Assembly (NCBI GenBank): GCA_964607485.1
Contig: CAZSKP010000026.1
Location: forward strand, 1 to 64,000
From: an uncultured bacterium
Lineage (GTDB): Bacteria; Abyssobacteria; SURF-5
Direction: 5' to 3'
Length of the DNA: 64,000 nt
Of the stretch, positions 6,454-61,173 are shown piece by piece. Both the position numbers and the translations under genes were made by a program. Position 1 is the first letter of the stretch. Every line of letters starts with the position of its first letter. The notes beneath the pieces were generated by a model. That model made no database searches, was not told where the DNA came from, and saw only the letters and a program-made list of their open reading frames with translations.

Positions 6454-7800
6454 ATGACAGAGAAATCGGCGCTTGAGCAGAGAGATATTTCCGCCATTAT
6501 CTTCGATAGCATCAGCGAGGGAGTCTTCACGACCGACCACGACTGCCGCATCACCTCGTTCAACAGCGCGGCGGAGACGATATCGGGTTTCAGCAGGGAG
6601 GAAGCAATAGGGAAGTACTGTTTCGACATATTCCGGACCGACCTCTGCCAGACGCGGTGCGCTCTTCGCAACACCCTCGAAAACGGCAAACCGGTGTCGA
6701 ACGTCCGCGTGACCATCATCACCCGCGAGGGCCGCAAGGTGCCCATCAGCGTAAGCACGACGGTGCTTCGGGACGAGGCGAGACGTTGCATCGGGGCCGT
6801 GGAGTTTTTTCGGGACCTCTCCGAGATCGAGGGTCTCCAGGACAAGGTGTTCAAACTCAACCGGTTCGAAGACCTCGTAAGCTGCAACGAGCGGATGCAA
6901 CGCATCTTCAAGCTGCTGCCCGAGATCGCGGAATCTGAATGCAACGTACTGATCCAGGGTCCGAGCGGTTCGGGGAAGGAACTGCTCGCGCAGGCGCTCC
7001 ACAATCTCAGTCCACGAAAACACAAGTCCTACATCCGCATCAACTGCGCGGCGCTTCCCGAGACGTTGCTGGAATCGGAGCTGTTCGGCTACGTGCGCGG
7101 CGCATTCACCGACGCGAAACGCGACAAGCCGGGGATGTTCTACATGGCCCAGGGAGGCACGCTCCTGCTGGACGAAATCGGGGATATGCCGCTGGCGTTG
7201 CAGGTGAAGCTCTTGAGGGTGCTCAACAATGGCGAATACCAGCCTTTGGGCTCGACCCGAATGCTGCAAACCGACGCTCGCATAATCACCTCCTCCAACC
7301 AGGACATAAAGCGCATGGTCGAGCAGGGCGTTTTTCGAGAGGACTTGTTCTATCGGATCAACGTGATCAACATTCAGATTCCGCCACTTTGCGAACGGTT
7401 GGAGGACTTGCCGCTGCTGATCGAGCATTTCATCCAGCAGTTTCGGACAAAGCGGAAGAAGGACATACGGGGCGTGTCGAACGAAGTGTTGAGGCTACTG
7501 AGGAGGTATGATTTTCCGGGAAACGTGCGGGAGTTGGAGAACGCCGTCGAGCACGCCTTCGTGATATGCAGGGGCAACATCATTGAGCCCGAGCATCTGC
7601 CCGAAAGGATACTCGAGGCGGTTCGCAGTATCGAGGAACGGTCGGGACAGCCGTCCTATGGGCAGAGTTCAGAAGAATCCATAATACGCGAGGCGCTCGT
7701 CCGTAATAGGGGCAACCGCCGCAAGACTGCCGATGAACTGAACATGCATCGCTCCACGTTGTGGAGAAAGATGGAGAAATACGGAATCGCTTCTCCGTGA
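6454..7800 (+). CDS. sigma54-dependent activator, PAS-AAA+-Fis HTH, OrpR-like
   Basis: PAS with C-X8-C-X3-C; GPSGSGKE, ESELFG, GAFTDA and PGNVRELEN motifs; C-terminal HTH; no receiver domain. Confidence 0.9.
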   Translation: MTEKSALEQRDISAIIFDSISEGVFTTDHDCRITSFNSAAETISGFSREEAIGKYCFDIFRTDLCQTRCALRNTLENGKPVSNVRVTIITREGRKVPISVSTTVLRDEARRCIGAVEFFRDLSEIEGLQDKVFKLNRFEDLVSCNERMQRIFKLLPEIAESECNVLIQGPSGSGKELLAQALHNLSPRKHKSYIRINCAALPETLLESELFGYVRGAFTDAKRDKPGMFYMAQGGTLLLDEIGDMPLALQVKLLRVLNNGEYQPLGSTRMLQTDARIITSSNQDIKRMVEQGVFREDLFYRINVINIQIPPLCERLEDLPLLIEHFIQQFRTKRKKDIRGVSNEVLRLLRRYDFPGNVRELENAVEHAFVICRGNIIEPEHLPERILEAVRSIEERSGQPSYGQSSEESIIREALVRNRGNRRKTADELNMHRSTLWRKMEKYGIASP

Positions 7801-7901
7801 ACTCAGGATTCGCAACCCTCGGCCTGCTGCCGGTTGTCCTCGGCGGCTCGGCTGGCGCTCCGCTGGGCGCCTGTTCAGCGGCCGCGTCGGTTCTACCCAT
7901 C

Positions 7902-8447
7902 CTACGCCGGCGTCACGGCGATGCTTATTTCTTCCCATGAACCTTCGGGGAGAGAGAGTTTGTCCAGCAGGAGTATGGCCGACGGGTTAAGATAGTACTG
8001 GTTCGGCCTGTCCGGACCAACGAGAACGACCGGCGCGTTGAACCTGAAGGCGAACTCCTCGATCGGAATGTTGCCGAACGTGATTGCCTTCTCCAGGTGC
8101 GGAATCACGAGCAACTGGTATTCCCGATTCATGAGACACGTCCTGAGTTCTTTCGCGTGCCGGCTCTCCTCGCAGACCTTGAAGCCCACGTCAACGTACT
8201 CACCCAGACACTTGTCGTAATATTCGCGCAGCTTCCTGTCGGTGGCCACGAGAATCTTCTCATCGATTATCTTGCGGCCCTTTCCCAGGGGTTCCGAATA
8301 TTTTTCGTACGGAGACCTCAGGAAATAGAAGATGTTCAGTTGGCATTTGTTTTTGCGAGCGAGGGAAAATGCGAAGTCAAATGCCCAGTCCCCCTTCTCC
8401 GAGAAATGGGCGCACAGTCCCACGCTGTCCATCGCAACGGTAGTCAT
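7902..8447 (-). CDS. Universal stress protein-like protein
   Basis: CAHFSEKGDWAFDFAFSLA start and FNAPVVLV end typical of the USP fold. Confidence 0.7.
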   Translation of the reverse strand: MTTVAMDSVGLCAHFSEKGDWAFDFAFSLARKNKCQLNIFYFLRSPYEKYSEPLGKGRKIIDEKILVATDRKLREYYDKCLGEYVDVGFKVCEESRHAKELRTCLMNREYQLLVIPHLEKAITFGNIPIEEFAFRFNAPVVLVGPDRPNQYYLNPSAILLLDKLSLPEGSWEEISIAVTPA

Positions 8448-8486
8448 CGTATCTTCTCCTTTCTCTATCCGCACTCACGACGACCG

Positions 8487-9443
8487 TTAGAGTTCCTTCA
8501 GAATATCGTCGATGTAATACTTCGAGTACAACGCACTGACCGGATTGTTTGCCAGAGATTTGTCCTTCACGAAAAGGGTGGACGCAGGGGCGTCGCTGTA
8601 CCGGGCAAAGATGCAGTCGCACCCCACGCACAATCCCACGGCAACATTGATGTCTGTTTTCAGCGCATTGAGAACTCTCGCCTGACCTATCGGATTGCAC
8701 ACGATCCCGTTAGACGCCGTGATGAGGTCGGGCTGCGCTCTCCCGCCGACTTTGCAGCACACCGGGCTTACCGAAAAAAAGCGGCGTAGCAACCGCGTGA
8801 GTATTTCCGTCTCTCTGAACATGTCCACGCAGAACGCCACGCCGACGTGCGTGCACTCCATGCCGATACAGTAATAGATGAACTCCGCGACACGGCACAG
8901 CTTGCGGTCGGTTTCCGCCTCTACGTCCATCGTGACTTCCATGGAATGATGAAATTTTGCGTACTGTTCGGCCGGATAAAGTTCGCCGAATCGCGTCGTG
9001 CAGTTCTCGCCCTTGAGACAGATTCGGTCCACGCACTCGACACAGTCGATTCCTGATTCCACCGTTTGCTTTTGCAAAGCCCTTTTTGGCTCGACGTCCG
9101 ACGCTGATTCCCTGCCTTCGGACGCCAAGCCGTACCCGTTCCTGAGACGGCCACTTCCCAGGGCCGCCAGGACCTCCTCGGTCTCTGCAGCTACGTCGTG
9201 GATCACTCGGATTCCGTATGAGTCCGCCTTCTCAATGAATTCCCTGTCGATCGCACCGCAGACGAACAGGTCGATTTCCAGCCCAACTAGTTGCAACAAT
9301 CGCTCCTCTTCGGTCATTCCGGTTGTCTCGACGATCTTTCTCGAGACTTCGCGGTCGTCGAAAAACTGGACGAGCAATGTCTTATCGGAATAAAGACACC
9401 GGGGCGAAACCCGAGATCCAAAGAGCGGAATGGCTACCCTCAC
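8487..9443 (-). CDS. NifB/NifX-family domain fused to DUF1847 Cys-rich domain
   Basis: N-terminal RVAIPLFGSRVSPR..ICGAI-like NifX motif; C-terminal RVAE, AFC, VCCKVG, CNPIGQA, GLCVGCD and VKD DUF1847 motifs. Confidence 0.82.
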   Translation of the reverse strand: MRVAIPLFGSRVSPRCLYSDKTLLVQFFDDREVSRKIVETTGMTEEERLLQLVGLEIDLFVCGAIDREFIEKADSYGIRVIHDVAAETEEVLAALGSGRLRNGYGLASEGRESASDVEPKRALQKQTVESGIDCVECVDRICLKGENCTTRFGELYPAEQYAKFHHSMEVTMDVEAETDRKLCRVAEFIYYCIGMECTHVGVAFCVDMFRETEILTRLLRRFFSVSPVCCKVGGRAQPDLITASNGIVCNPIGQARVLNALKTDINVAVGLCVGCDCIFARYSDAPASTLFVKDKSLANNPVSALYSKYYIDDILKEL

Positions 9444-9564
9444 GACTTTTTTCCCATCTCATTCTCGACGTTGTGAGCTTCGAGCCTACGAGAAAGATGA
9501 AATATTTCGAGGAAGACTCTTTCGCATGTTTCAGCACTTTGCTGATTCGTCGGAAAATCTTTCG

Positions 9565-9579
9565 GCAATAACTATGCCA
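9565..9579 (-). promoter_or_regulatory. sigma54 promoter for the NifX-DUF1847/USP operon
   Basis: Minus strand TGGCATAGTTATTGC. Confidence 0.75.
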
Positions 9580-9858
9580 AGAGTTCTCCTCTCTTCAATC
9601 CTTCATTCCAATGCACAGAGCTTCGCGCTTTTTCTCCATTTCGAGCTTGTCGACCGCATCTGGCGACAGCAGAAACACGCCCGAAGAACGTCGCAGAACG
9701 CGTTGCATGCAACGTCGCGTCGCAACGATGTGCCACAAGAAAGGCGACATTGACGCTCGCTCCGGGACCTGCTATCGGGAATGACGCACCGCAGCAAGTC
9801 CCGAATTTTCCGGCAGTATCGAAGCGCGAATCAGCTTCGCTCCGGTTTGAGGCGAGGG

Positions 9859-9873
9859 TGGCATATTTCTTGC
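9859..9873 (+). promoter_or_regulatory. sigma54 promoter for the qrc-tmc cluster
   Basis: TGGCATATTTCTTGC about 90 nt upstream of qrcA. Confidence 0.78.
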
Positions 9874-9964
9874 CCAAACAGTATTCGGCATCAGCATGAA
9901 ATGACAATCAATCCTTGTGAGGGGACCACGTGTTTGATAGTTGCCGGTTTTGGATGAAAAAATC

Positions 9965-10603
9965 ATGACGGAAAGAAGGATCTCAGTCGGCCAAAAATAT
10001 TTTGCGGGTATCCTCGGTTTTTTCCTGGTCGGCCTGTTGATCTTCCTGTTGCTGGGCTGGTTTGTGTTTCCAAGCCTAATCTATGAAAGGAAGGCGCAGC
10101 CCGTGAATTACAACCCGCCGTTGCATGTGGAGAAGCTGGGCATTACATGCGATACGTGCCACTTCTTCCACGAAGACGGCAGTTGGGCGGGGATTCCCAC
10201 TCTGGAAACGTGTGTGGACTGCCACGCCGAGACAATCGGCGATTCACCCGAGGAAGAGAAGTTCGTCAACAACTATGTCAAGAAGAACAAAGAGGTGAAG
10301 TGGGCGCTATACGTGAGGCAGCCGGAGTGCGTGTCCTTCTCGCATTCTTCACACGTGAGAATGGCCAAGATCGCGTGTGAGACGTGTCACGGGCCGCAGG
10401 GCCATTCCGATGCGACAGAATATCTGGCAAACAGGATTACGAACTACAGCTACGTAGTGTACGATCCCCGCGTTCCCCTCAACGCTTTTACCATCATGAA
10501 CGAGAAGGGGAGCAAGGTGTGGGGAACCATGAGGATGGATGAGTGCGCAGGCTGTCACCGTTCGAGAGGAACGAGCACGGCGTGTTTCATCTGTCACAAA
10601 TAG
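9965..10603 (+). CDS. qrcA: Membrane-anchored pentaheme cytochrome c (QrcA)
   Basis: N-terminal TM; five CxxCH (CDTCH, CVDCH, CETCH, CAGCH, CFICH); operon position. Confidence 0.85.
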   Translation: MTERRISVGQKYFAGILGFFLVGLLIFLLLGWFVFPSLIYERKAQPVNYNPPLHVEKLGITCDTCHFFHEDGSWAGIPTLETCVDCHAETIGDSPEEEKFVNNYVKKNKEVKWALYVRQPECVSFSHSSHVRMAKIACETCHGPQGHSDATEYLANRITNYSYVVYDPRVPLNAFTIMNEKGSKVWGTMRMDECAGCHRSRGTSTACFICHK

Positions 10604-48154: not shown

Positions 48155-48257
48155 GCTTACCCCTAAAGCGTGCACCAATTTGCGAATTCCGCAGGACGAT
48201 CAGTCGAGCGAGTTCGATACACAAAAAATGCCGCCCGGGTGTTGGCCCAGGCGGCGG

Positions 48258-48343
48258 TGCGGGGAGGGGGACTTGAACCCCCACGGGATATAGCTCCCGT
48301 CAGCCCCTCAAGCTGGTGTGTCTGCCAATTCCACCACCCCCGC
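48258..48343 (-). tRNA. tRNA-Leu(GAG)
   Basis: GCGGGGG/CCCCGC acceptor stem, TGGTGGAATTGGCAGAC D-arm, TTGAGGG anticodon loop, long variable arm, GGTTCAAGTCC T-arm; CCA not fully encoded. Confidence 0.93.
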
Positions 48344-50120: not shown

Positions 50121-51710
50121 TCACTCACGTTCTGTTCTTCGTGTTCCTTCGTGTTCTTCGTGGATCAATCCTTTCCGACTCCTTTTCCTCACCACGACGC
50201 AAACGCCGAGAAGAACCGCCGTCAGGATCGCGCACGCGAGTACCCACATGTCTCCATGGGACTTGTAGAAAGTGTCGTGAGGAACGGTCGATATCCGCTC
50301 GACGGAAAATCCGCGGACAAAGACGGTCTCGCCCCACGACGCGCCCACGACACCGCTGACTCGTCCCCAGGGGTCGATGAAACATGATATGCCGGTATTC
50401 GTTCCTCTGACAAGTGTGACGCCGTTCTCGATTGCGCGAAACACGGCGATGGCCAAGTCCTGCTTCGGCTGGGCGGTCCGGCCGAACCACCCGTCGTTGG
50501 TGAGCTGTATTAAGAAATCGCAGCCGAGGCTCGCCGACTCGCGGACAAGATGAGGAAAGCTGTTCTCGAAACAGATCAGCACCGCGAACTTCTTCCCGTC
50601 GAATTCGAAAAGCGTAATCTTCCTGCCGGGGCTGAAGTCGGAAATCTGCGGCACCACCTTTCCCAGAAATGACAGCAAGCGTCCCATGGGCACATATTCA
50701 CCGAACGGGGCGAGGTGCCTCTTATCGTACCTGCCGAGCACCTGCCCGTCAGGGGAAATGAGAAAGGCGGAATTGTAGTAACGCATCTCCTCTTCCGGGC
50801 CCGTCCCCGTATTCTCATAATGATCGCTTCCCATGACCAGGTATATGTTGTTCGCGCGAACGACCTCGCCTACCTCGTCGAGTTTGTCAATGAGGTAGCC
50901 GTACAAGGCGCTTTCAGGCCACACCACGAGCTTCGCCCCATCAGCCGCCGCGAACTCCGTCAGTCTCTCCTGCGTCCAGAACATGTGGGCGCTGTATTCG
51001 CGGCTCCATTTGACATCGAGCGAGAAGTCGGGCTGGATGACCCCCACGCGCAATGAAGACGACATATCCGGCTCCTGCATGCGCCCCTTTCCCCACAAGG
51101 GCACGGCGCCTCCGAGAAAGATCAGTATCCCGGCCACGGGAAGCGCAAGCGATGGCCGCTTCACATGGCGAACGAGCTCGTACAGGAGAACATTGATTAC
51201 GACAATATAGGAGGTGACCGCATAAACCGACCCGATCGACGCCAACTGTGCCACAAGGAGGTTGCTCGATTGCGTGTACCCCAGCGAGCCCCAGCCGAAC
51301 CCGGTGAAGATATGGTTGTGGATGTATTCCATCACCACCCACATCGCAGGCACCGCCACGACGACGGCGGCGGGCATCCACCTGTCGAAGAACCGTTTGC
51401 CGACAGCGATGACTCCCCAGAACAGGGAGAACAGAACAACCAGCAGCCCGACACCCGCGAGCACGATTCCGCCCACCCAGTACGTCAGCGACGCGAACCA
51501 TGCGAATGTGATGCCGTAAAATACCACACCCGCCAGCATGCCACCCCAAAATGCCTTCCGGTAATCTTTCCCCCGCAGCCACAGCAGCAGCGGAACCAGA
51601 CCGACGTACGCAAGCGGCCACAAGCTCGTGCTTGGGAACGCCGCCGCGAGCAGCACCGCGCTGGCAACCGGAAGAATGATTTCTCGCGCTTTCATTTTTT
51701 GTCGGGTCAT
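50121..51710 (-). CDS. lnt: Apolipoprotein N-acyltransferase
   Basis: TMs; WPESA, KRHLAPFGEY, ICFE, TNDGWF and NTGIS motifs. Confidence 0.94.
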   Translation of the reverse strand: MTRQKMKAREIILPVASAVLLAAAFPSTSLWPLAYVGLVPLLLWLRGKDYRKAFWGGMLAGVVFYGITFAWFASLTYWVGGIVLAGVGLLVVLFSLFWGVIAVGKRFFDRWMPAAVVVAVPAMWVVMEYIHNHIFTGFGWGSLGYTQSSNLLVAQLASIGSVYAVTSYIVVINVLLYELVRHVKRPSLALPVAGILIFLGGAVPLWGKGRMQEPDMSSSLRVGVIQPDFSLDVKWSREYSAHMFWTQERLTEFAAADGAKLVVWPESALYGYLIDKLDEVGEVVRANNIYLVMGSDHYENTGTGPEEEMRYYNSAFLISPDGQVLGRYDKRHLAPFGEYVPMGRLLSFLGKVVPQISDFSPGRKITLFEFDGKKFAVLICFENSFPHLVRESASLGCDFLIQLTNDGWFGRTAQPKQDLAIAVFRAIENGVTLVRGTNTGISCFIDPWGRVSGVVGASWGETVFVRGFSVERISTVPHDTFYKSHGDMWVLACAILTAVLLGVCVVVRKRSRKGLIHEEHEGTRRTERE

Positions 51711-51811
51711 GCGCCGGCCGACGCGCAGAAGCCGCTTGAGCCGGTCAAATTAATATCCCAGTGTTCTGTCTCAGAAAGAGCTTGAATAATATCTCGCATC
51801 GTCAGGCTCAT

Positions 51812-51883
51812 TGTCATTCCCACGAAAGTGGGAATCCAGTTTGCAGGGAAAAATCATGGATTCCCGTTTTCACGGGAATGACA
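51812..51883. repeat. GTCATTCCC...GGGAATGAC REP doublet
   Basis: TGTCATTCCCACGAAAGTGGGAATCCA ... TGGATTCCCGTTTTCACGGGAATGACA. Confidence 0.8.
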
Positions 51884-52030
51884 CAAATAGCGGGTGGTGC
51901 GCTGGTGAATTTATCAAGGTATCTCCAGGACAACACACTAGCAAAAAGGCAGGCTGACACTTGCCTGCCTGCTTGAAATTCGCAATGAAGCTCCCCGGAA
52001 CTCCCGCTGCAATGATCCCGCCCGTCCTCC

Positions 52031-52723
52031 CTACGGCAAATAGCGGACGTAGCAATCGGCAAATCGTGAATCCGCGGCGAGCTTGCCCTGGGCTTTGTTC
52101 GCCTCCGCCTCGGTCTGAAACGGCCCCACCATCACGCGGAAGAACCGGCCCTTGGCCCCCAGGTCCACCTCTTCCACGTACGAGGCGAAGCCCTTCCCCT
52201 TGAGAACCTCCATATGAGAAGCCGCCATGGACTTGTCCTGCGAGGAAGCCACCTGTATGGCATAGTGGAACGTGGGCGGCTCTTCCTTCTTGGCGGGAGG
52301 CGGCGCCGGCTTCTTCGGCTCGGGCTTCGGCGCTGGAGCCGCAACTTTGGGTTCCGGCTTTGGCGGCGGAGCGGGTTCGGCCGCCTTCGGTTTCTCCGGC
52401 GCGGGCGGCGGCTGCTCCGACGCAGTCGTTGATTTGACCTCGGGCTTTTCCGGAGCGGCGGGCGCCACGTCCTGAGGTTGAGCGGTTGCGGTCGCGGCAG
52501 CCTCGGGAGGCTCTTCGGCCGGTTCGGACGGCGGTTTCAGGGGCGCCGGGCGGCTGCTTTCACCGATTGCGAAGTTGCTCGGCTTCTGGAACCGCTCGAT
52601 CCTGATTCCCAGCATCAAGCTGAGCGCCATCAGGGCCAGCACGACGCACACGAGCAGAACCAATCGACCTGTGCTGAACGCATATACGTACGGCTTGTCG
52701 GGCGGAACGGACTTAGGGCTCAT
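52031..52723 (-). CDS. SPOR-domain cell-division-type membrane protein
   Basis: TM, Pro/Ala/Lys linker, YAIQVAS...FRVMVGPF SPOR domain. Confidence 0.88.
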   Translation of the reverse strand: MSPKSVPPDKPYVYAFSTGRLVLLVCVVLALMALSLMLGIRIERFQKPSNFAIGESSRPAPLKPPSEPAEEPPEAAATATAQPQDVAPAAPEKPEVKSTTASEQPPPAPEKPKAAEPAPPPKPEPKVAAPAPKPEPKKPAPPPAKKEEPPTFHYAIQVASSQDKSMAASHMEVLKGKGFASYVEEVDLGAKGRFFRVMVGPFQTEAEANKAQGKLAADSRFADCYVRYLP

Positions 52724-53234
52724 CCTCTTGCCCTCCGGCATGACCCAGATGTTCCTCCAGCCTGAGCTTGACCTCTTCCAACTGCGACTCGGTCAATTGC
52801 GGGTCCACGACCCGTATCTGCGTGTCGTTATGCTTGTCGGAGAACACCAGCACGCTTCTCCCCGACGAGTCGTCCTTTTCTTCCCGGATGAACCGGAACA
52901 CCTTCTGCCGCCTCAACATCATCGCGCACACGTAGGCCATCGCCTCGGCGTCGGCGCCGCCCTGGGCTATCGACTCGTAGCAGAGGTTGAGCAGAGGGAT
53001 GAACTGCTCTTTCGGCGTCGCTCGCTCGACGGAGGGGTCTCGATACTTCGTCTCCCAGAACGAATAGATGTCGTCCGCCGCGGCCGAGCGCTCCGTCCAG
53101 CAGCCCTCGCAATAGTCCTCCCTGAGGAAATTGTTCCCGTCTATCTTGAGCAGCGAAAAATGCTTTTGCTCATGGGCAAACGGCTGGCTGCATGCCATGC
53201 AGCGCGCCGATTCCTTCTGTATCTGTATTTCCAC
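52713..53234 (-). CDS. Hypothetical protein with CxxC..CxxC zinc ribbon
   Basis: CMAC, DYCEGCW, SFW and LRRQKVF; overlaps the SPOR gene start. Confidence 0.7.
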   Translation of the reverse strand: MEIQIQKESARCMACSQPFAHEQKHFSLLKIDGNNFLREDYCEGCWTERSAAADDIYSFWETKYRDPSVERATPKEQFIPLLNLCYESIAQGGADAEAMAYVCAMMLRRQKVFRFIREEKDDSSGRSVLVFSDKHNDTQIRVVDPQLTESQLEEVKLRLEEHLGHAGGQEDEP

Positions 53235-53349
53235 GATGCCCCTTCCGATGCCGGACACACACATCCCCTTGCGTGCCACTGAGATTCACGCCCGATTCTA
53301 CCACAGGGTCATAGGACTGTCAAGAAGCGGGGGGACGGTCTTCGGTTCA

Positions 53350-53860
53350 CCCGAAACCGACCTATCCACTAAGAACACGAAGCGCCACCAAGGAATCCAT
53401 CTACATGAACCTTCCTGCCCTTCGTGGATAAATCCTTCTCTGTCATTGCGAGGAACAACGTGACGAAGCAATCTCCAACCATCGGAAACAGGCATTCGAC
53501 TTTGGACTTCGGATATTGGACTTTGGACTTTCTTTCCCAATCCGCAACCCGCAATCCCAAATCCAAAATGAAGGGGAACCACAGATGCACACAGGTAAAC
53601 GCAGATGTCATTCCGGGCCAACCATCATTCCGACAACATGTCATTCTGAGCGAAGCGAAGAATCTCTCTTTTCAGCCACAGAGCACACAGAGTTCTCAGA
53701 GGGATTTTTCTTTTCATCCTAAGCTTGTCTTGAGGTTCTCGAAAGACCTGTCGAATGGATTTATGGTCTAGACTTTGGACTCAGGAGTTCGGACTTTGGA
53801 CTCAAGGAAGGCGCAGGCCCCGAGGCTTGACTTTGTTAACTGATAGTAGTATCTTGGAAT
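53350..53860. repeat. Mosaic of several short-repeat families ending in promoter copy 3
   Basis: 9-bp-period CACGAA/CACAGA units, GTCATTGCGAG (53441), TGGAC heptamers, GTCATTCTGAGC (53639); TTGACT(53827)-N17-TATCTT. Confidence 0.75.
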
Positions 53861-53974
53861 CAGTAAGAACAATCCGATTTCAAAACTAACACAAAGTTGG
53901 ATAATCAAGCTTGACAAAAAAAGAAAATGTGGCAATGAGTGACCCCGATTTCCCGAGGTAGGAGAACCCATAGA

Positions 53975-54912
53975 ATGGCAGACGCAAATTCCGAAATGTT
54001 GCGACGGTTGAAAGCATTAGAAGACAGACAAAGCCTTTCTGAAGAATTGGACAGAAAAACGGAAAAGACTCGCGCTGACCTTTTTGAGGAATTAAACAGA
54101 AGAACGAAAACAATCTCGACTTACCGAAACTGGACAATATTTGTACTGGCTTTTTTGGGAATAACTTCTGTTTCCGCATTATGTACTATAAGAATGCAGT
54201 GTCGAATGCTCTGGATGAACAAGTTCAGCTTGTGCGGGACGACGTAAGAAAGAAATTAGACGAAGAGTTTGAAGATGCCAAAATTCAGGGCCTTATAGAA
54301 GAAACGGCTCAAGACTACACGGAAGGCAGAGTTGAACACTATATATCTGAAAAAGTGGAAGAGAGAATATCCCCGTTTTCCAGAGAAATGAAGCAACTCG
54401 TAATTGACTATGAGACTGATCTGATACAGTTGAAGAAATTGACCGAACTTGAGCAAAAAGCGCGGTTTGGGTCCAGAGATGCATATAACGAACTTTGTGA
54501 ATATGAAGCGGAAACGCCCGATACAGATCTGCGTACTACAGCTTCTATTTGCATTGATATTCTGCAACGAGAGTTGTCTATCTACCGCCACATGCCTAGC
54601 GGTATATTTGGTTCGGACCTAATGCAAGATGGAAAGGATATCTCGCCTCAGAGTCGAACCACGAAAGAACTCTTCGACATACTGGAAGCCCCAAACATTC
54701 GCGACGCCACACGCCATGCATTGATGCACCATATTGCTAAAAGACCAAAGGATGAAGTTATACCCGAGGCTTTGAAGATTTTGAGAGACTCCGATTCGCT
54801 CCCAGCGTGTGCAGCAACATGCGGAATTCTATCAAGTATGCTTGGGGAAAAGGCTGGTTTCATGGAATTTGGAGAATGGATCAAGGTTTGTGAAGAGCAA
54901 CTGGGAAAGTAA
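53975..54912 (+). pseudogene. Frameshifted AT-rich membrane-anchored coiled-coil protein gene
   Basis: MADANSE...TM (WTIFVLAFLGITSVSAL) in one frame continues as YYKNAVS... in another frame near 54180. Confidence 0.6.
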
Positions 54913-55327
54913 GCAATAAATAATGTATGGTGGCCAGGATTTAAGCTGACAGTGATGCTGTCTCCTGCTGTGTCTGTACGTGTCGAGTTAAAATTGTCTC
55001 CGGATTTGTTCGATATTTTGAGACAGGGAGTCTATCTGAAAGCATTCTCCCATAAAGCCATCTAATCTGTCTATCTCCAACTTGCAGACCATAATCTTCG
55101 TCTAACATACTGCATTCGGTTTATGGTAGAATGATTTGATGCTGGAGAAAGAAAAGGAGATATCTGCGGAAGTGCATGTCTAGGCTATTATTGGTAATGC
55201 TTTCATTTCCAGCTTTATTCTTTATAAATTAAGTAATGAGATGTATCTTAAGCCCGAGTTTTAATGTTTGAAAGAGCTATGTTGTGCTTGGCTATATCTG
55301 CCACATCTAAGCCTCATTGAAATTAGG

Positions 55328-55744
55328 ATGTCCCTAATGGATTGTATTCAGAGATTAATGGCTGATGCATCTCCTTGGTTGGTTCCCTTAGTTCTCCTGA
55401 TTCTGCAATTTCTGTTCAAGATATACATAAACGGGACACCCTCTGGTAGCATATTCTGGAAGAGTTTTTTACAATCTCCTGTGGAGATAGGTTTTCTTGG
55501 GCTATCCTTCATAGCCGCAGCAGGGATCTCAGAGCTAATACCAGCTCCCGAAACAATAGGCTGGTTCGTTTTCTTTCTGTTGTTGAATATCTTGATTATC
55601 ATCATTTGGAAGCATTCTCCGGTCGGAATAAACTCAAAGCAGATTATGCAAGCCAGTTTTCTGGCCTTTTTAAATTTTGCTATATCAATAGCAATGCTTG
55701 TAGTTAGTATTAACCTTCTTATACGGAGGACCATTGCCACATGA
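55328..55744 (+). CDS. Small 4-TM hypothetical membrane protein
   Basis: Four hydrophobic segments; ATGA overlap with the next gene; AT-rich. Confidence 0.7.
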   Translation: MSLMDCIQRLMADASPWLVPLVLLILQFLFKIYINGTPSGSIFWKSFLQSPVEIGFLGLSFIAAAGISELIPAPETIGWFVFFLLLNILIIIIWKHSPVGINSKQIMQASFLAFLNFAISIAMLVVSINLLIRRTIAT

Positions 55745-56454
55745 GTTCACCTGCGCTCATTATTTTATATATGATTCCTGCTCTTCTCTCAGTCATGATA
55801 GCTTTGGCATTTCTCAGTCTTAAGTTGAATCGTATGTCGCGTGAGGTGAAAGAGTATCGAGAAGACAAATTCAGACATCAACTGGAGGCAAAGATAGAAG
55901 CTCTGGGCATGGATTTGGCCGCCAGTAAAGAACGATTTGAGCAGCTAAATCATTTGATTTTGAAGAGTCAACTGGAAGGAGCTTCCATTCAAGAAAAAGA
56001 AAAAGCCATAGGTCCAGGCGCAAATGCTTTTTTCGAAGCGCTAGGAATTGATTTGCACATGAAGGTTGATAAAGAACTCATCTTTGTGCTTATGCCATTT
56101 AGGCCAGACTTCGATGAGACTTTCCGTGTTATAAAAGATGTGGTTGAGTCAGCGGGATTCCGATGTATGAGAGGCGACGAAGAAAAAATTTCAGGTAGCA
56201 TTTTACCTCATATACTGTGGCTTGTTGCGAAAGCAAGATTGATCATAGCTGAGATTACCGGAAGAAACGCAAATGTTTTCTATGAACTGGGAATTTCACA
56301 TGCGATCGGAAAACAAGTATTGCTCATCTCAAAAACTGCGGAAGATATGCCTTTTGATATCAGCGGCCTCAGGATACTAACATATCAGGATTCAAAAGAT
56401 CTTACTCATAAACTGAAAGACTGGTTAATTCGTACATTTGCCAAAATGGAATGA
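55741..56454 (+). CDS. TM-coiled-coil-nucleoside deoxyribosyltransferase/TIR-like domain protein
   Basis: FVLMPF, RGDE, IIAEITGRNANVFYELGISHA and PFDI motifs. Confidence 0.8.
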   Translation: MSSPALIILYMIPALLSVMIALAFLSLKLNRMSREVKEYREDKFRHQLEAKIEALGMDLAASKERFEQLNHLILKSQLEGASIQEKEKAIGPGANAFFEALGIDLHMKVDKELIFVLMPFRPDFDETFRVIKDVVESAGFRCMRGDEEKISGSILPHILWLVAKARLIIAEITGRNANVFYELGISHAIGKQVLLISKTAEDMPFDISGLRILTYQDSKDLTHKLKDWLIRTFAKME

Positions 56455-56662
56455 GCAGTTTAATAATGTAAGACCTGATCCCACCTTTGCACTATCCTAC
56501 CGTGCAGGAAATTTTCTCGCTATTGATATTGCGGTTTTTGCTTTTTCCCCGTGATGCGCCGTGTTCCCCGTGGTTGAGAATTCTTTTCAGATTTTTGTTG
56601 GGCGCAGCATGCTGCGCACAACTACAGACTCGGTAGTGGAGAGGGTTACTTGGGTCGGCAGC

Positions 56663-56971
56663 TTATGGCTTGCCGTCGCAGAATCGTTTGGCGTAGTCGA
56701 GATGGTGCTTGAGCAGCCACAGCTTCTGGCAGAACTCGGGCCAGCCGCACTCCGGCTGAAAGCTCTCCGCGACCTCGGGATCCACCATCACGCCATGCAC
56801 CAGCGAGCCCTCGAGCTGGTCCCAGATGTCGCCCCACGTGCTCAGCGCATCCCGCAATACTGAGGCGTTGACGTTTCGGAAGTGCATCAGCATTTTCTCG
56901 GCCGAGACGGTGGGTCTTGCATGCGGCTCTTTGGCTGAGCCGCCAGGAAGAACCCTGAAATCTCTCGCCAT
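56663..56971 (-). CDS. Hypothetical protein downstream of amtB
   Basis: RBS AGGAAGG, host-like codon usage. Confidence 0.6.
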   Translation of the reverse strand: MARDFRVLPGGSAKEPHARPTVSAEKMLMHFRNVNASVLRDALSTWGDIWDQLEGSLVHGVMVDPEVAESFQPECGWPEFCQKLWLLKHHLDYAKRFCDGKP

Positions 56972-56995
56972 GTCAATGCCTTCCTTTCCTTGCTC

Positions 56996-57058
56996 CGGGG
57001 ACAGTCCCGAATCTACGGCCTCGACGGGCTCGGCCCGTAATTTCTTGGGACAGTCCCC
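56996..57058. repeat. GGGACAGTCCC REP-like doublet
   Basis: GGGGACAGTCCC ... GGGACAGTCCCC in the intergenic spacer. Confidence 0.55.
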
Positions 57059-57067
57059 ATCAGCTCT

Positions 57068-58378
57068 CTAGTCCACGGTTGACAGGGCATAAGCGCTTTC
57101 GCCGTGCTGGCTGTAGTCGAGCCCCGCCAGTTCCTCTTCGGCGTCAACGCGCAGGCCTATCGTTTTCTCTATCAGCAGTACAAGGACGAAGGTGACGGCG
57201 GCGGCATATGCGACGGCGACCAGCACGGCGACGAATTGAGTGCCGAACTGGCTCAGTGCGCCCACATGGTTGCTGCGCATGAAGAACGAGAGGGCGAGCG
57301 CCCCGGTAATCCCGCCCATGCCGTGTACGCCGAACACGTCGAGGCTGTCGTCGTATCCAAGCGTGTTCTTTACCTGGATGGCGCCGTAGCAGATGCAGGC
57401 GGCCAGCGCCCCGAGCGCAATCGCGCCGTACGGGAGAACTGCGCCCGCGGCAGGCGTGATGGCCACCAGCCCGGCCAGGATGCCGCTCGCGATGCCGAGC
57501 GATGTGGCTTTGCCCTTGTGGATGGCTTCGATCAGCATCCATGCGACGGCGCCCGTTGCGGCAGCGATCTGAGTGACGGTCAACGCCTGTGCGGTCCTGA
57601 GATCGGACGAGACGGCGCTGCCCGCATTGAATCCGAACCATCCCACCCACAGCAGGCCCGCGCCGATCATGGTCATGGTCAGGTTGCTTGGGTGCATGGT
57701 TTTTCGGGGATAGCCCTTCCGGGGTTTGAGGAAAAGGGCGAGAACGAGCGCGCTTATCCCGGAGGAAATGTGCACCACCGTTCCGCCGGCGAAGTCTATC
57801 GTGCCCATCCTGTACAAGAAGCCCATGTCGTTGCCGTTGGCATACCACACCCAATGACACAGCGGGTTGTAAACGAGGAGAGCCCAAAGTGTGATGAAAA
57901 TGCAGTACGCCTTGAACCTCACCCTCTCGGCGAACGCCCCCGCGATCAGCGCGGGCGTGATGATTGCAAACTTGCCTTGAAACATGGCGAACACGTACTC
58001 GGGAATGCCGTTTGTGACCGATTTGTCAATCCCTTTAAGGACGAAGTAATCCCAACTCCACCCGAACCAGCCGCCGAGCACGTTGTGCCCAAAAGCCATC
58101 GCGTAACCGCACACCGCCCAAAGCAAGCCGATGATGCCCATCGCGGCAAACGAATGCATCATCGTGCCGAGTACATTCTTGGAGCGGACCAGTCCGCCGT
58201 AAAACATGGCCAGACCGGGAACCATCAGAAGAACCAGCGCGGTAGACGTCAACATCCAGGCGGTCGTTCCCGAGTCGGTTTCCGTGGCCGACCCATTGCC
58301 GGCAAGCGCAACGCCGGGTACCAGGAAACCAACCACAAGGATGAGGATGACGACGAACAATCTCATTCTTCTTTCCAT
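57068..58378 (-). CDS. amtB: Ammonium transporter
   Basis: GLAMFYGGLVR, DFAGGTVVH, WFGFNAGS and DDSLDVFGVHG motifs; ATG 58378 with GGAGG at 9 nt. Confidence 0.96.
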   Translation of the reverse strand: MERRMRLFVVILILVVGFLVPGVALAGNGSATETDSGTTAWMLTSTALVLLMVPGLAMFYGGLVRSKNVLGTMMHSFAAMGIIGLLWAVCGYAMAFGHNVLGGWFGWSWDYFVLKGIDKSVTNGIPEYVFAMFQGKFAIITPALIAGAFAERVRFKAYCIFITLWALLVYNPLCHWVWYANGNDMGFLYRMGTIDFAGGTVVHISSGISALVLALFLKPRKGYPRKTMHPSNLTMTMIGAGLLWVGWFGFNAGSAVSSDLRTAQALTVTQIAAATGAVAWMLIEAIHKGKATSLGIASGILAGLVAITPAAGAVLPYGAIALGALAACICYGAIQVKNTLGYDDSLDVFGVHGMGGITGALALSFFMRSNHVGALSQFGTQFVAVLVAVAYAAAVTFVLVLLIEKTIGLRVDAEEELAGLDYSQHGESAYALSTVD

Positions 58379-58491
58379 GAACATGAACCTCCAAACAGGT
58401 GTGGTCTCGAGCCCGCCTCTGAGAATCCGACGATCACGCCGTGCTGCTGTTGGGAAACCGACTGTCCGATAGAAGATTGCTGTAAAAAGGA

Positions 58492-58581
58492 TCATAGAGA
58501 GGCGGACCGACCTTTTGAATGCCCCGCATTCATTCGGAAGCGAACCCCATAATTCGCATCATCAGGTCCGCCTCTCTATGA
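58492..58581 (-). ncRNA. Candidate structured leader (attenuator) of amtB
   Basis: Perfect 17-bp closing stem enclosing two hairpins, followed by UCCUUUUU. Confidence 0.55.
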
Positions 58582-58613
58582 ACTGTTTGCTTGTCTTCAG
58601 ATTCTCTGTAAGG

Positions 58614-58628
58614 GCAAGTCTGATGCCA
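58614..58628 (-). promoter_or_regulatory. sigma54 promoter for amtB
   Basis: Minus strand TGGCATCAGACTTGC. Confidence 0.75.
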
Positions 58629-58898
58629 TAGCATGTGAACGGAACGCCGGCATAACCTCAATGCTCTCTCAGAGAACGTCTTAGGAAGACTGGCGTGTCT
58701 GGATGCGCCTGCCTCTTGGAGTTCATTCAGGCCGGCATGGTGCCTGTTTCATAGGCAGTCGCCTAAGAAATGAGCAGCGCCGAAGCGATTCGACCGGCGG
58801 ACTGTGGTCCGCACAATCGAATAGGCTGGGCTCAGAATGCTTGTAAGTAAAGGGAGAAATGAATGTCGCGCCGTTCCCGCGGGCCATGACTTCGGAAA

Positions 58899-58914
58899 TG
58901 GTATCCTTTTTGCT
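58899..58914 (+). promoter_or_regulatory. sigma54 promoter for the PII-glnA operon
   Basis: TGGTATCCTTTTTGCT (GG-N10-GC). Confidence 0.65.
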
Positions 58915-59057
58915 TGCTATCCTTCTCGATTGCTTATGATATATAATATGACCTCGAGAGATTCTCGACCTTTCGATTGCCAATACGTGCACGCAGTCGG
59001 ACGACGGCGAAATCATCTCCCCAATGTGTCCGGATCGAGATGGGATTCCACACATGA

Positions 59058-59405
<348 letters not shown>

Positions 59406-59525
59406 TCAGTCGGCATCCCCCGGTCTCCGGGGTACCTTGAAAAGCGCGCAAAGGGGACGGGGACAGTACATCAGGGCGTTTCGTCAGAAAAATACTTTTC
59501 CATAACGGAAGGGAGCAAAAGAAAA

Positions 59526-61059: not shown

Positions 61060-61173
61060 TGTCATTCTGAGCGAAGCGAAGAATCTCTTGTTGCGTGATG
61101 ACTTGCATCAAAACTCAGATCCTTCACTCGGGCCTGCGGCCCACGGGTCCGAGACCCTTCGTTCAGGATGACA
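61060..61173. repeat. GTCATTCTGAGC...CAGGATGAC repeat copy
   Basis: Homologous to 3070-3190. Confidence 0.8.

Follow-up and report, generated by a model that had tools for sequence, protein, structure and literature searches.

The closest described relative of the system considered here is type VIII Thoeris, in which, according to the accessible part of its description, a TIR protein works together with an effector, ThsI (Yirmiya et al., 10.64898/2025.12.03.692087). As reported there, ThsI consists of a 'CMP hydrolase' domain and tetratricopeptide repeats (TPR), is activated by cyclic ADP-ribose (cADPR) and is sometimes accompanied by the SLATT effector ThsH (10.64898/2025.12.03.692087). Here we describe two overlapping genes on the forward strand of a 64,000-nucleotide stretch (positions 1 to 64,000 of contig CAZSKP010000026.1, assembly GCA_964607485.1, from an uncultured bacterium of the Abyssobacteria lineage SURF-5; the whole stretch is called the window below). 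Gene 1 encodes a small protein with four transmembrane (4TM) helices and gene 2 a membrane-anchored protein with a nucleoside deoxyribosyltransferase (NDT)/TIR-fold domain. Comparison of the sequences across genomes indicates that the two genes are a real, conserved two-gene module that recurs across many phyla, and it makes the pair a good candidate for a new anti-phage system.

The module is strongly supported by linkage. A sequence-only reading of this DNA had proposed a two-gene membrane defence system and had staked that proposal beforehand on the two genes being found together in other genomes. One genome per species was scanned for gene 2 relatives, at least 600 stretches were matched, of which 596 were confirmed, and the best 80 were kept and gave 79 loci; L001-L051 are full-length (the match begins at query residue 60 or earlier) and L052-L079 are domain-only. 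In a six-frame profile scan of 5,420 segments, the gene 1 family lies directly upstream of the gene 2 relative in 47 of the 51 full-length loci, and it adjoins none of the 28 domain-only loci and none of the additional loci L081-L083; the window and a locus on a Bacillus albus plasmid also match. Most full-length loci had supplied the training alignment of the gene 1 profile, yet L018, L028, L029, L031, L035, L039, L043, L048 and L080, which had not, match as well. As for the four misses, the contig ends just upstream of the gene 2 relative in two of them (L032 and L038), another (L033) gives a weak gene 1 match in a targeted test (E 6.5e-6), and in the last (L050) the gene 2 relative has no transmembrane (TM) helix.

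The same arrangement emerges when the open reading frames (ORFs) themselves are inspected. Of the 51 full-length loci, 42 have an upstream ORF, mostly of 120-176 aa and with 2-4 TM segments by hydropathy, that ends between -25 and +29 nt from the estimated start of gene 2; in L029, L033, L043 and L048 this layout precedes a gene 2 that is longer and has additional TM helices. The 42 upstream proteins and the gene 1 product of the window form one phmmer component, and the latter alone matches 36 of the 42 at E<=1.8e-5 in this small database. A word-indexed search in which gene 1 had matched nothing except itself was a false negative, overturned by phmmer, by the family profile and by the six-frame scan. 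Gene order and strand are constant in all relatives of the pair, and the pairwise identities of gene 1 and gene 2 correlate (Pearson 0.82, a value that 0 of 999 Mantel permutations reach), as is expected for a co-inherited unit, although shared ancestry alone could also yield such a correlation. Interrupted copies of gene 1 were seen in three loci: L018 has an in-frame stop, the ORF is split in L035 and the frame changes in L039. This suggests that the module is decaying in some genomes.

The product of gene 2 was modelled with AlphaFold2 from 28 sequences (predicted local distance difference test score, pLDDT, 85.9) as a long helix at residues 4-60, more helices to about residue 100 and an alpha/beta domain at residues 110-236. 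Most of its relatives have one TM segment predicted by hydropathy, and because basic residues come after this segment, the positive-inside rule places the remainder of the protein in the cytoplasm. The sequence-only reading had recognised a coiled coil between the TM segment and the domain; helices are modelled at that place, and they are better described as a helical stalk, in which R45 and E49 are family-invariant (41 of the 41 rows with a residue there) and N70-H71-L72 near-invariant.

The identity of the domain is indicated by several comparisons. Among solved structures, Foldseek places NDT and DNPH1/Rcl first, with E values of 1.5e-4 to 1e-3 and TM-scores on the target of 0.52-0.74 (2a0k_A at E 1.5e-4; 9s0o_B with a TM-score on the target of 0.74), and TIR domains (C. 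elegans TIR-1, RUN1) rank slightly lower; in BFVD the top match is a 'CMP/hydroxymethyl CMP hydrolase' (E 2.2e-6), followed by a Cap12/Pycsar TIR protein and NDTs. Evidence from the sequence is less strong: the gene 2 profile reaches Rcl/DNPH1 among PDB sequences at E 0.024, the CBASS-type PADLOC model PDLC00733 'Effector TIR' matches residues 129-226 at E 1.1e-9, and some relatives of the domain carry PF05014 (NDT) in precomputed Pfam annotation. The motifs FVLMPF (residues 114-119), ITGRNANVFYELG (172-184) and PFDI (204-207), from which such a fold had been proposed by eye, lie in a domain that has the NDT/TIR fold by Foldseek and profile alignment, and the Glu that they were said to retain is kept. 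This residue, E182, is present in 28 of 28 database relatives and in all 42 rows of an alignment of the window protein with 41 genome-derived relatives, where D146, R175, N176, N178, Y181, G184 and D206 are likewise found 42 times out of 42; conservation across the domain extends over P119, R144-G-D146, R175-N-x-N-V-x-Y-E-L-G184, K191 and D206. In the profile alignment E182 falls on the Glu of the Rcl/DNPH1 segment 'GVGYELG', the equivalent of which we take to be the nucleophile in NDT and DNPH1.

Apart from this domain, Pfam recognises in gene 2 no TPR-S, MAP3K_TRAF_bd, SAVED, SLOG, PF13271 or other known ligand-sensing domain; in other proteins, precomputed Pfam annotation shows the gene 2-type domain fused to GAF, sigma-54 AAA, TIR, DUF4062 (PF13271), HSP70 and other sensor-type domains. 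Two plasmid loci, L082 and L083, are particularly informative. Their proteins, named 'TRAFs-binding domain-containing protein', carry the domain at the N-terminus, followed by TPR-S and MAP3K_TRAF_bd; a ThsB_TIR gene adjoins the TPR-S gene in both, and one of the two loci has a SLATT gene in addition. Between the gene 2 domain and its N-terminal counterpart in the 411-aa TPR-S protein of L082 the identity is 38% (121 aligned columns, E 1e-19), and the motifs FV.M.F, R.DE, N.N..YELGI.HA and PFD are common to both. Because of these TPR-S relatives, which are ThsI-like by architecture only, we read the gene 2 domain as a module of the effector class, and in gene 2 a TM helix, a stalk and a 4TM partner would seem to take the place of the TPR-S sensor and the TIR partner.

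That partner, the product of gene 1, is modelled from a 40-sequence alignment as four helices (residues 3-34, 40-67, 73-95 and 103-137; pLDDT 92.8, predicted template-modelling score 0.80), which bears out its original description as a 4TM protein; on this model it is a compact and highly conserved four-helix integral membrane protein. The family alignment has a conserved motif, ELPVD..FLS.SF, at the start of helix 2, and conservation at P20, P51, D53 and S60 is at least 90%. Lysine and arginine average 2.69 in loop 1 and 3.62 in loop 3 across the family, as against 0.60 at the N-terminus, 0.88 in loop 2 and 0.52 at the C-terminus, and because basic residues concentrate there, loops 1 and 3 are predicted to be cytoplasmic; ELPVD, at the boundary of loop 1 and helix 2, would therefore lie on the cytoplasmic face. 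The modelled loops are 5-7 residues long, and the protein is almost all membrane helix. It has no match in Pfam (E<=1), PADLOC 2.0.0, NCBIfam or PHROGs, no fold relative of the model in the PDB at E<=1e-3 and, like gene 2, only unnamed clusters in the Atlas. The family itself is large, with 504 representatives at 50% identity (profile, E<=1e-3; 359 at E<=1e-10), none of them named, and among the 150 matches listed all members are 89-182 aa long and no fused forms were seen.

A highly conserved, compact four-helix bundle invites the question of whether the roles might be reversed, with gene 2 sensing infection and making a nucleotide-derived signal, as in Thoeris, and the 4TM protein oligomerising into a membrane-breaching pore. 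In recently validated Thoeris types a TIR gene does occur together with that of a small membrane effector, either ThsF (DUF2270, three TM) or ThsH (SLATT), in the part of the report accessible to us (10.64898/2025.12.03.692087), and DRHyd/TIR domains have been predicted, in the consulted part of another source, to be base-releasing signal generators (PMC7159879). The short loops of gene 1, however, leave it without an obvious ligand-binding domain, and neither Pfam (E<=1) nor PADLOC 2.0.0 yields a profile match that would identify it as SLATT or DUF2270; gene 2, for its part, matches a CBASS effector model, and the closest relatives of its domain sit in an effector-type protein, in which an NDT-like domain is combined with TPR-S, and not in a ThsB-TIR protein. 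We consider such an exchange of roles unlikely.

The distribution of the pair is that of an accessory, horizontally mobile element, as far as trees and neighbourhoods can tell. The gene 2 tree conflicts with taxonomy: the window copy groups with copies from Acidobacteriota and Ignavibacteriota, and a Nocardioides copy clusters with those of Nitrospirales and Cellvibrio. Near-identical gene 2 copies in different Bacteroidota families (L023, L028, L037 and L041, with branch lengths of 0.01-0.05), and likewise in Lysinibacillus and Exiguobacterium (L027 and L031), indicate recent horizontal transfer. The closest database relative of the window's gene 2, P0002, is labelled as a Methanosarcinales archaeon and the closest genome locus, L001, as Ignavibacteria; a contig of 9486 bases is given for both, and the two labels may belong to one contig that was binned differently. 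Phage genomes contain only domain-only relatives of gene 2 (45 records, in none of which the match extends over 80% of the query), among them temperate Staphylococcus and Streptococcus phages. The relative in Staphylococcus phage vB_SauS_Mh1 (L081, 3911-4570) is a single gene of 219 aa with neither a TM segment nor a 4TM partner, and it lies antisense to the surrounding early genes, in a moron-like position.

To describe the surroundings, greedy ORFs were collected for 46 loci, the closest three to the left and to the right of the pair, and the resulting 244 proteins were compared with Pfam, and with PADLOC at E<=1e-10. At least one sign of defence, toxin-antitoxin (TA) genes, mobile elements or STAND genes was found near the pair in 26 of the 46 loci, and a specific PADLOC defence or candidate-defence gene lies within three ORFs in 12 of them (Table 1). 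PADLOC matches to mad2-like methyltransferases (L003, L004, L013), PolA (L010), 2OG (L020), radical-SAM/pVip-like proteins (L012), AAA_5 (L028), an HtrA-like protease (L031), UvrB (L045) and a DEAD helicase (L026) were set aside as generic. Pfam adds TA or mobile neighbours in the form of ParE with a TRADD-N-associated TM protein (L004), SduA_C (L006), HipA (L007), an integrase (L041) and transposases (L013, L014, L026, L035). Individual neighbourhoods are instructive: in Rossellomorea (L034, 3105-5169) the pair is directly beside a retron of type II-A, with its reverse transcriptase (RT) and NDT effector; in Pseudomonas (L044, 6823-9146) it adjoins a DRT8 system (RT and PD-(D/E)XK); and in Neorhizobium (L022, 1907-8025) it is found inside a prophage head module with terminase, between a fusion of portal and Acb1 (an anti-CBASS protein) and DUF2213, with an Abi_alpha/PDC-S47 gene nearby. 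The copy on the Bacillus albus plasmid lies near IS3, and RefSeq names both of its genes 'hypothetical protein'. An accessory context that is often associated with defence or mobile genetic elements (MGEs), for which the sequence-only reading had proposed a check, is recovered from neighbours, tree, prophage and plasmid alike; as evidence of function, the defence/MGE neighbourhood is suggestive and is not a formal enrichment.

Two further interpretations of the pair have to be weighed against this distribution. Copies in a prophage head module (L022), on a plasmid and beside transposases, ParE and HipA, together with the small, overlapping and apparently co-transcribed genes, could point to an addiction or exclusion module, that is, a TA-like pair or a device for superinfection exclusion or lysis timing by prophages, in which one protein would be a membrane toxin and the other would restrain it. 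Most copies, however, are chromosomal and outside recognisable mobile elements, and the invariant catalytic-type residues of gene 2 suggest an enzyme and not a simple antitoxin; the idea also overlaps so heavily with abortive infection that the two are hard to tell apart by sequence, and we give it little credence as a separate explanation. The other interpretation is a housekeeping or stress role, such as membrane-associated nucleotide salvage or a DNPH1-like removal of damaged or modified nucleotides, which is what one might expect of a protein whose best matches among solved structures, NDT and DNPH1/Rcl, are metabolic enzymes and whose neighbours in 20 of the 46 loci are housekeeping or unknown genes only. 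Such a role fits poorly with a patchy distribution at odds with taxonomy, near-identical copies across families, prophage and plasmid copies, the low-GC island that holds the window copy, the interrupted copies in L018, L039 and L035, the defence neighbours in 12 of the 46 loci and the existence of a STAND-linked clade, and we regard it as improbable.

The STAND-linked clade deserves separate consideration. In 10 of the 46 neighbour-scanned loci, all of them from Bacteroidota, gene 2 is followed directly by an ORF of about 1240 aa, which abuts or overlaps the end of gene 2, and each of the ten ORFs has an nSTAND3 NTPase domain (PF20720; E 1e-13 to 5e-9) at about residues 190-330. The N-terminal 190 aa and the C-terminal 900 aa of these proteins are unrecognised and PADLOC gives no match for them at E<=1e-10. 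The nine STAND loci present in the gene 2 tree form one clade (support 100/98); in most STAND loci gene 1 carries an acidic C-terminal tail. The window has no STAND NTPase gene.

An NTPase gene that overlaps the end of gene 2 in ten loci of one clade could mean that the pair is an effector cassette that brings no sensor with it and is fired in trans by a STAND NTPase, a TIR protein or a cyclase signal encoded elsewhere, and relatives of the gene 2 domain do act downstream of TIR signalling in ThsI-like operons, to the extent that the source can be consulted. No STAND, TIR or cyclase gene is nearby, however, in the window or in 36 of the 46 loci whose neighbours were scanned. What surrounds the pair differs between loci and only the pair itself stays the same, and gene 2 is devoid of TPR-S, SAVED, SLOG or any other known ligand-sensing domain. 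A cassette of this type therefore seems to us a poor prospect.

The interpretation that we favour, to which we assign a probability a little better than even, is that the pair constitutes a horizontally mobile two-gene anti-phage module of the abortive-infection type. The catalytic domain of gene 2 would face the cytoplasm on its helical stalk and be kept inactive there, and the 4TM partner, probably in complex with the TM helix and stalk of gene 2 in the membrane, would report a membrane event caused by the phage, for which genome injection, depolarisation and a holin or another phage protein inserting into the membrane are candidate triggers. This signal would release or oligomerise the gene 2 enzyme, whose domain would then cleave the N-glycosidic bond of NAD+, of a nucleotide or of a deoxynucleotide, emptying a substrate pool that the phage needs and stopping the infected cell. 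The STAND NTPase of the Bacteroidota clade would probably be an extra cytoplasmic sensor, added downstream and feeding the same effector pair. A bolder version of this scheme, offered tentatively and as something on which we would not wager, is that of a hitherto unnamed immune system that dispenses with a second messenger altogether, in which a four-helix membrane sensor directly switches on a tethered ThsI-type N-glycosidase acting on NAD+ or nucleotides, and which was captured by STAND later, in Bacteroidota.

Several observations weigh against our preferred interpretation and should temper it. Both Pfam families that come nearest to gene 2 stay below their thresholds, PF05014 (NDT) with 14.0 bits where 28.8 are required (E 0.058) and PF10137 (CAP12/PycTIR) with 12.4 bits against 24.7, and the catalytic residue seen to agree with NDT and DNPH1 is the Glu. 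The 12 loci with defence neighbours are a raw count, and the 20 loci with nothing except housekeeping or unknown neighbours include settings such as groES/EL (L020), uvrB/purD (L045) and dxs/cheW (L047). A DNA-level search of 5,426 complete E. coli genomes (blastn with the Enterobacter copy) did not reveal the pair. Lastly, Aravind and colleagues regard DRHyd and TIR domains as signal generators and not as killers, in the part of their work consulted here (PMC7159879), a view that fits the reversed roles discussed above. With these reservations, the interpretation originally placed on this locus is supported as far as sequence analysis reaches.

At the locus itself, the pair lies in a low-GC island (Table 1). 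The GC content is 0.385-0.455 over 53800-56599 and 0.39-0.47 within the island, as compared with 0.57-0.67 on both sides, and an ATGA at 55741-55744 couples the stop of gene 1 with the start of gene 2; the AT-rich, translationally coupled genes noted at the outset are therefore confirmed by the drop relative to the flanks and by the 4-nt overlap. In the longest, 158-aa form of gene 1 the alignment with the family profile begins at residue 31, which favours a start at 55328 or close to it. The flanks are housekeeping genes, with arginyl-tRNA synthetase (ArgRS), apolipoprotein N-acyltransferase (Lnt) and a SPOR protein to the left and an ammonium transporter (AmtB), P-II, glutamine synthetase (GlnA) and a TPR protein to the right, as identified by Pfam, which gives no match for the two ORFs that adjoin the island (52713-53279, 188 aa, and 56663-56971, 102 aa).

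Convincing borders of the island were not found by a repeat search and a tRNA search of the window. A 30-nt repeat pair at 52730 and 56807 was rejected as an attachment (att) site, being weak (73% identity), and the sole tRNA of the window, tRNA-Leu(GAG) at 48256-48343 (-), which adjoins the arginyl-tRNA synthetase gene, is about 5 kb away from the island and hence not an obvious integration site. The boundaries of the operon are left undefined by a promoter and terminator scan of 53800-56800, whose yield was not above that of shuffled sequences (8 vs 5.7±2.5 and 5 vs 2.5±1.6), and Rfam has no match at E<=0.1 in 51500-59500.

The remainder of the island contains a split gene and several repeats. 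Two ORFs on the forward strand, 53939-54247 (102 aa, with a coiled-coil-like N-terminus followed by a TM segment) and 54181-54912 (243 aa), are apparently one gene of an unnamed family with a frame change in the overlap 54181-54247: in the 329-aa relative P0272, residues 11-90 align with the first and residues 96-326 with the second (47% identity). They were rejected as parts of the module, since tblastn matches them in none of the related loci. An exact 26-nt repeat, GTCATTCTGAGCGAAGCGAAGAATCT, occurs at 53640-53665 and at 61061-61086 (+), once in the left part of the island, which is non-coding, and once near the TPR gene; 0 of 100 shuffles give such a repeat, which is probably a dispersed element of the source genome resembling repetitive extragenic palindromic (REP) sequences. 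Direct repeats of the GACTTTGGACT type, at 53477-53529 and 53771-53802 (3 copies of a 32-nt unit, 63-100% identity), sit at the left end of the island, where ORFs are few, and have no Rfam match.

Table 1. Features of the gene pair and its island (window coordinates), and features of related loci (coordinates of the respective locus)
Feature	Position	Strand	Description
Gene 1	55328..55744	+	138 aa, from ATG 55328; longest ORF 55268..55744, from TTG, 158 aa
Gene 2	55741..56454	+	237 aa; ATG 55741-55743 overlaps gene 1 TGA 55742-55744
Gene 2 TM helix	55750..55818	+	residues 4-26; hydrophobic, inside the modelled helix 4-60
Gene 2 helical stalk	55819..56055	+	residues 27-105; modelled helices, pLDDT 53-72 over residues 60-90
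Gene 2 NDT/TIR-fold (DRHyd-type) domain	56056..56451	+	residues 106-237; Foldseek, profile, PADLOC
Predicted catalytic loop	56263..56292	+	R175-N-A-N-V-F-Y-E182-L-G184; E182 codon GAA 56284-56286
Low-GC island	53300..56500	.	about 3.2 kb; holds the gene 1/gene 2 pair and one split gene
STAND loci	about 6640-10430 in each		L008, L015, L023, L028, L035, L036, L037, L040, L041, L042
L005 neighbour			PDC-M30/M41 (PADLOC)
L017 neighbour			PDC-S06 (PADLOC)
L021 neighbour			PDC-S31 (PADLOC); antirestriction (Pfam)
L022 neighbour			PDC-S47 (PADLOC)
L024 neighbour			PDC-M34 (PADLOC)
L026 neighbour			type II restriction-modification (PADLOC)
L029 neighbour			GmrSD-like (PADLOC); Mob_Pre (Pfam)
L033 neighbour			PDC-S05 (PADLOC)
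L034 neighbour			retron II-A RT + NDT (PADLOC)
L037 neighbour			PD-T4-6 + PDC-S31 (PADLOC)
L043 neighbour			PDC-S15 (PADLOC)
L044 neighbour			DRT8 (PADLOC)

Should the pair prove protective, a compact two-gene system that spans phyla would be added to the bacterial immune repertoire. If the favoured mechanism were true, the effector domain of cADPR-triggered type VIII Thoeris would prove to be open to control from the membrane, in place of a TIR signal, which bears on how phages are sensed at the envelope and on how NDT/TIR-fold enzymes are switched on; a membrane sensor acting directly on a tethered N-glycosidase would represent a new link between sensing at the membrane and the depletion of nucleotides. 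The small size of the pair lends itself to direct cloning, to mutagenesis of the single invariant Glu and to metabolite profiling.

The relation of the pair to described systems can now be drawn more closely. The expectation that no named system would fit was borne out by PADLOC 2.0.0, in which, PDC candidates included, no system matches both genes and gene 2 receives the generic 'Effector TIR' only; the pair is assigned to no named system by Pfam, NCBIfam, PADLOC 2.0.0, PHROGs or the Atlas, and we found no description of a 4TM protein paired with a TM-anchored NDT in the literature, where the 29 putative TIR-system types of 10.64898/2025.12.03.692087 may nonetheless include it. With type VIII Thoeris the pair has in common the enzymatic-domain subfamily of ThsI, presumably a nucleotide-pool effector, but the TPR-S region of that effector is absent from gene 2, which has a TM helix, a stalk and an obligate 4TM partner in its stead, and the adjoining ThsB-TIR gene has no counterpart in the island or its flanks, nor among the three ORFs per side in the 46 loci. 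Types V and VII (a TIR gene with ThsF/DUF2270 or ThsH/SLATT), as far as their accessible description goes, are likewise two-gene operons of a TIR-fold protein and a small multi-TM protein; they differ in that the TIR-fold protein of the pair has a membrane anchor of its own and is similar to the effector class, and in that gene 1 matches neither DUF2270 nor SLATT.

Other defence systems resemble the pair in part. TIR effectors of CBASS and Pycsar have a conserved Glu in a flavodoxin-like TIR/NDT fold, and gene 2 may carry a domain of their type: PDLC00733 matches it at E 1.1e-9, and PF10137 stays below its cutoff. The CD-NTase or pyrimidine cyclase gene of their operons is absent from the window, and no cyclase family occurs among the neighbour matches. 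In retrons of type II-A, which are defence systems, an NDT-like domain does the killing, in the portion of the description consulted, but gene 2 has no match to NDT_II-A at E<=1 in PADLOC and is accompanied by neither a reverse transcriptase nor a non-coding RNA. Swarozyc/DUF4062 NADases, in the accessible part of their report, combine a TIR-like/NDT-like domain and a conserved Glu with abortive infection; they are cytoplasmic and activated by the phage portal (10.64898/2026.05.01.722283), whereas the pair would reside in the membrane, and PF13271 is absent from gene 2 while being present in some relatives of its domain. STAND/Avs-type systems are approached only by the Bacteroidota three-gene variant, in which a STAND NTPase belongs to the operon. 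The metabolic enzymes NDT and DNPH1/Rcl (PF05014), finally, are the best fold matches of gene 2, with the same flavodoxin-like NDT fold and the Glu of YELG aligned; gene 2 is set apart from them by its membrane anchor and by an invariant set of its own (R144-G-D146, R175, N176, N178, K191 and D206). What appears to be new here, in comparison with all of these, is the joining of a 4TM membrane partner to a known effector class, in a module that is as yet unnamed and is widespread.

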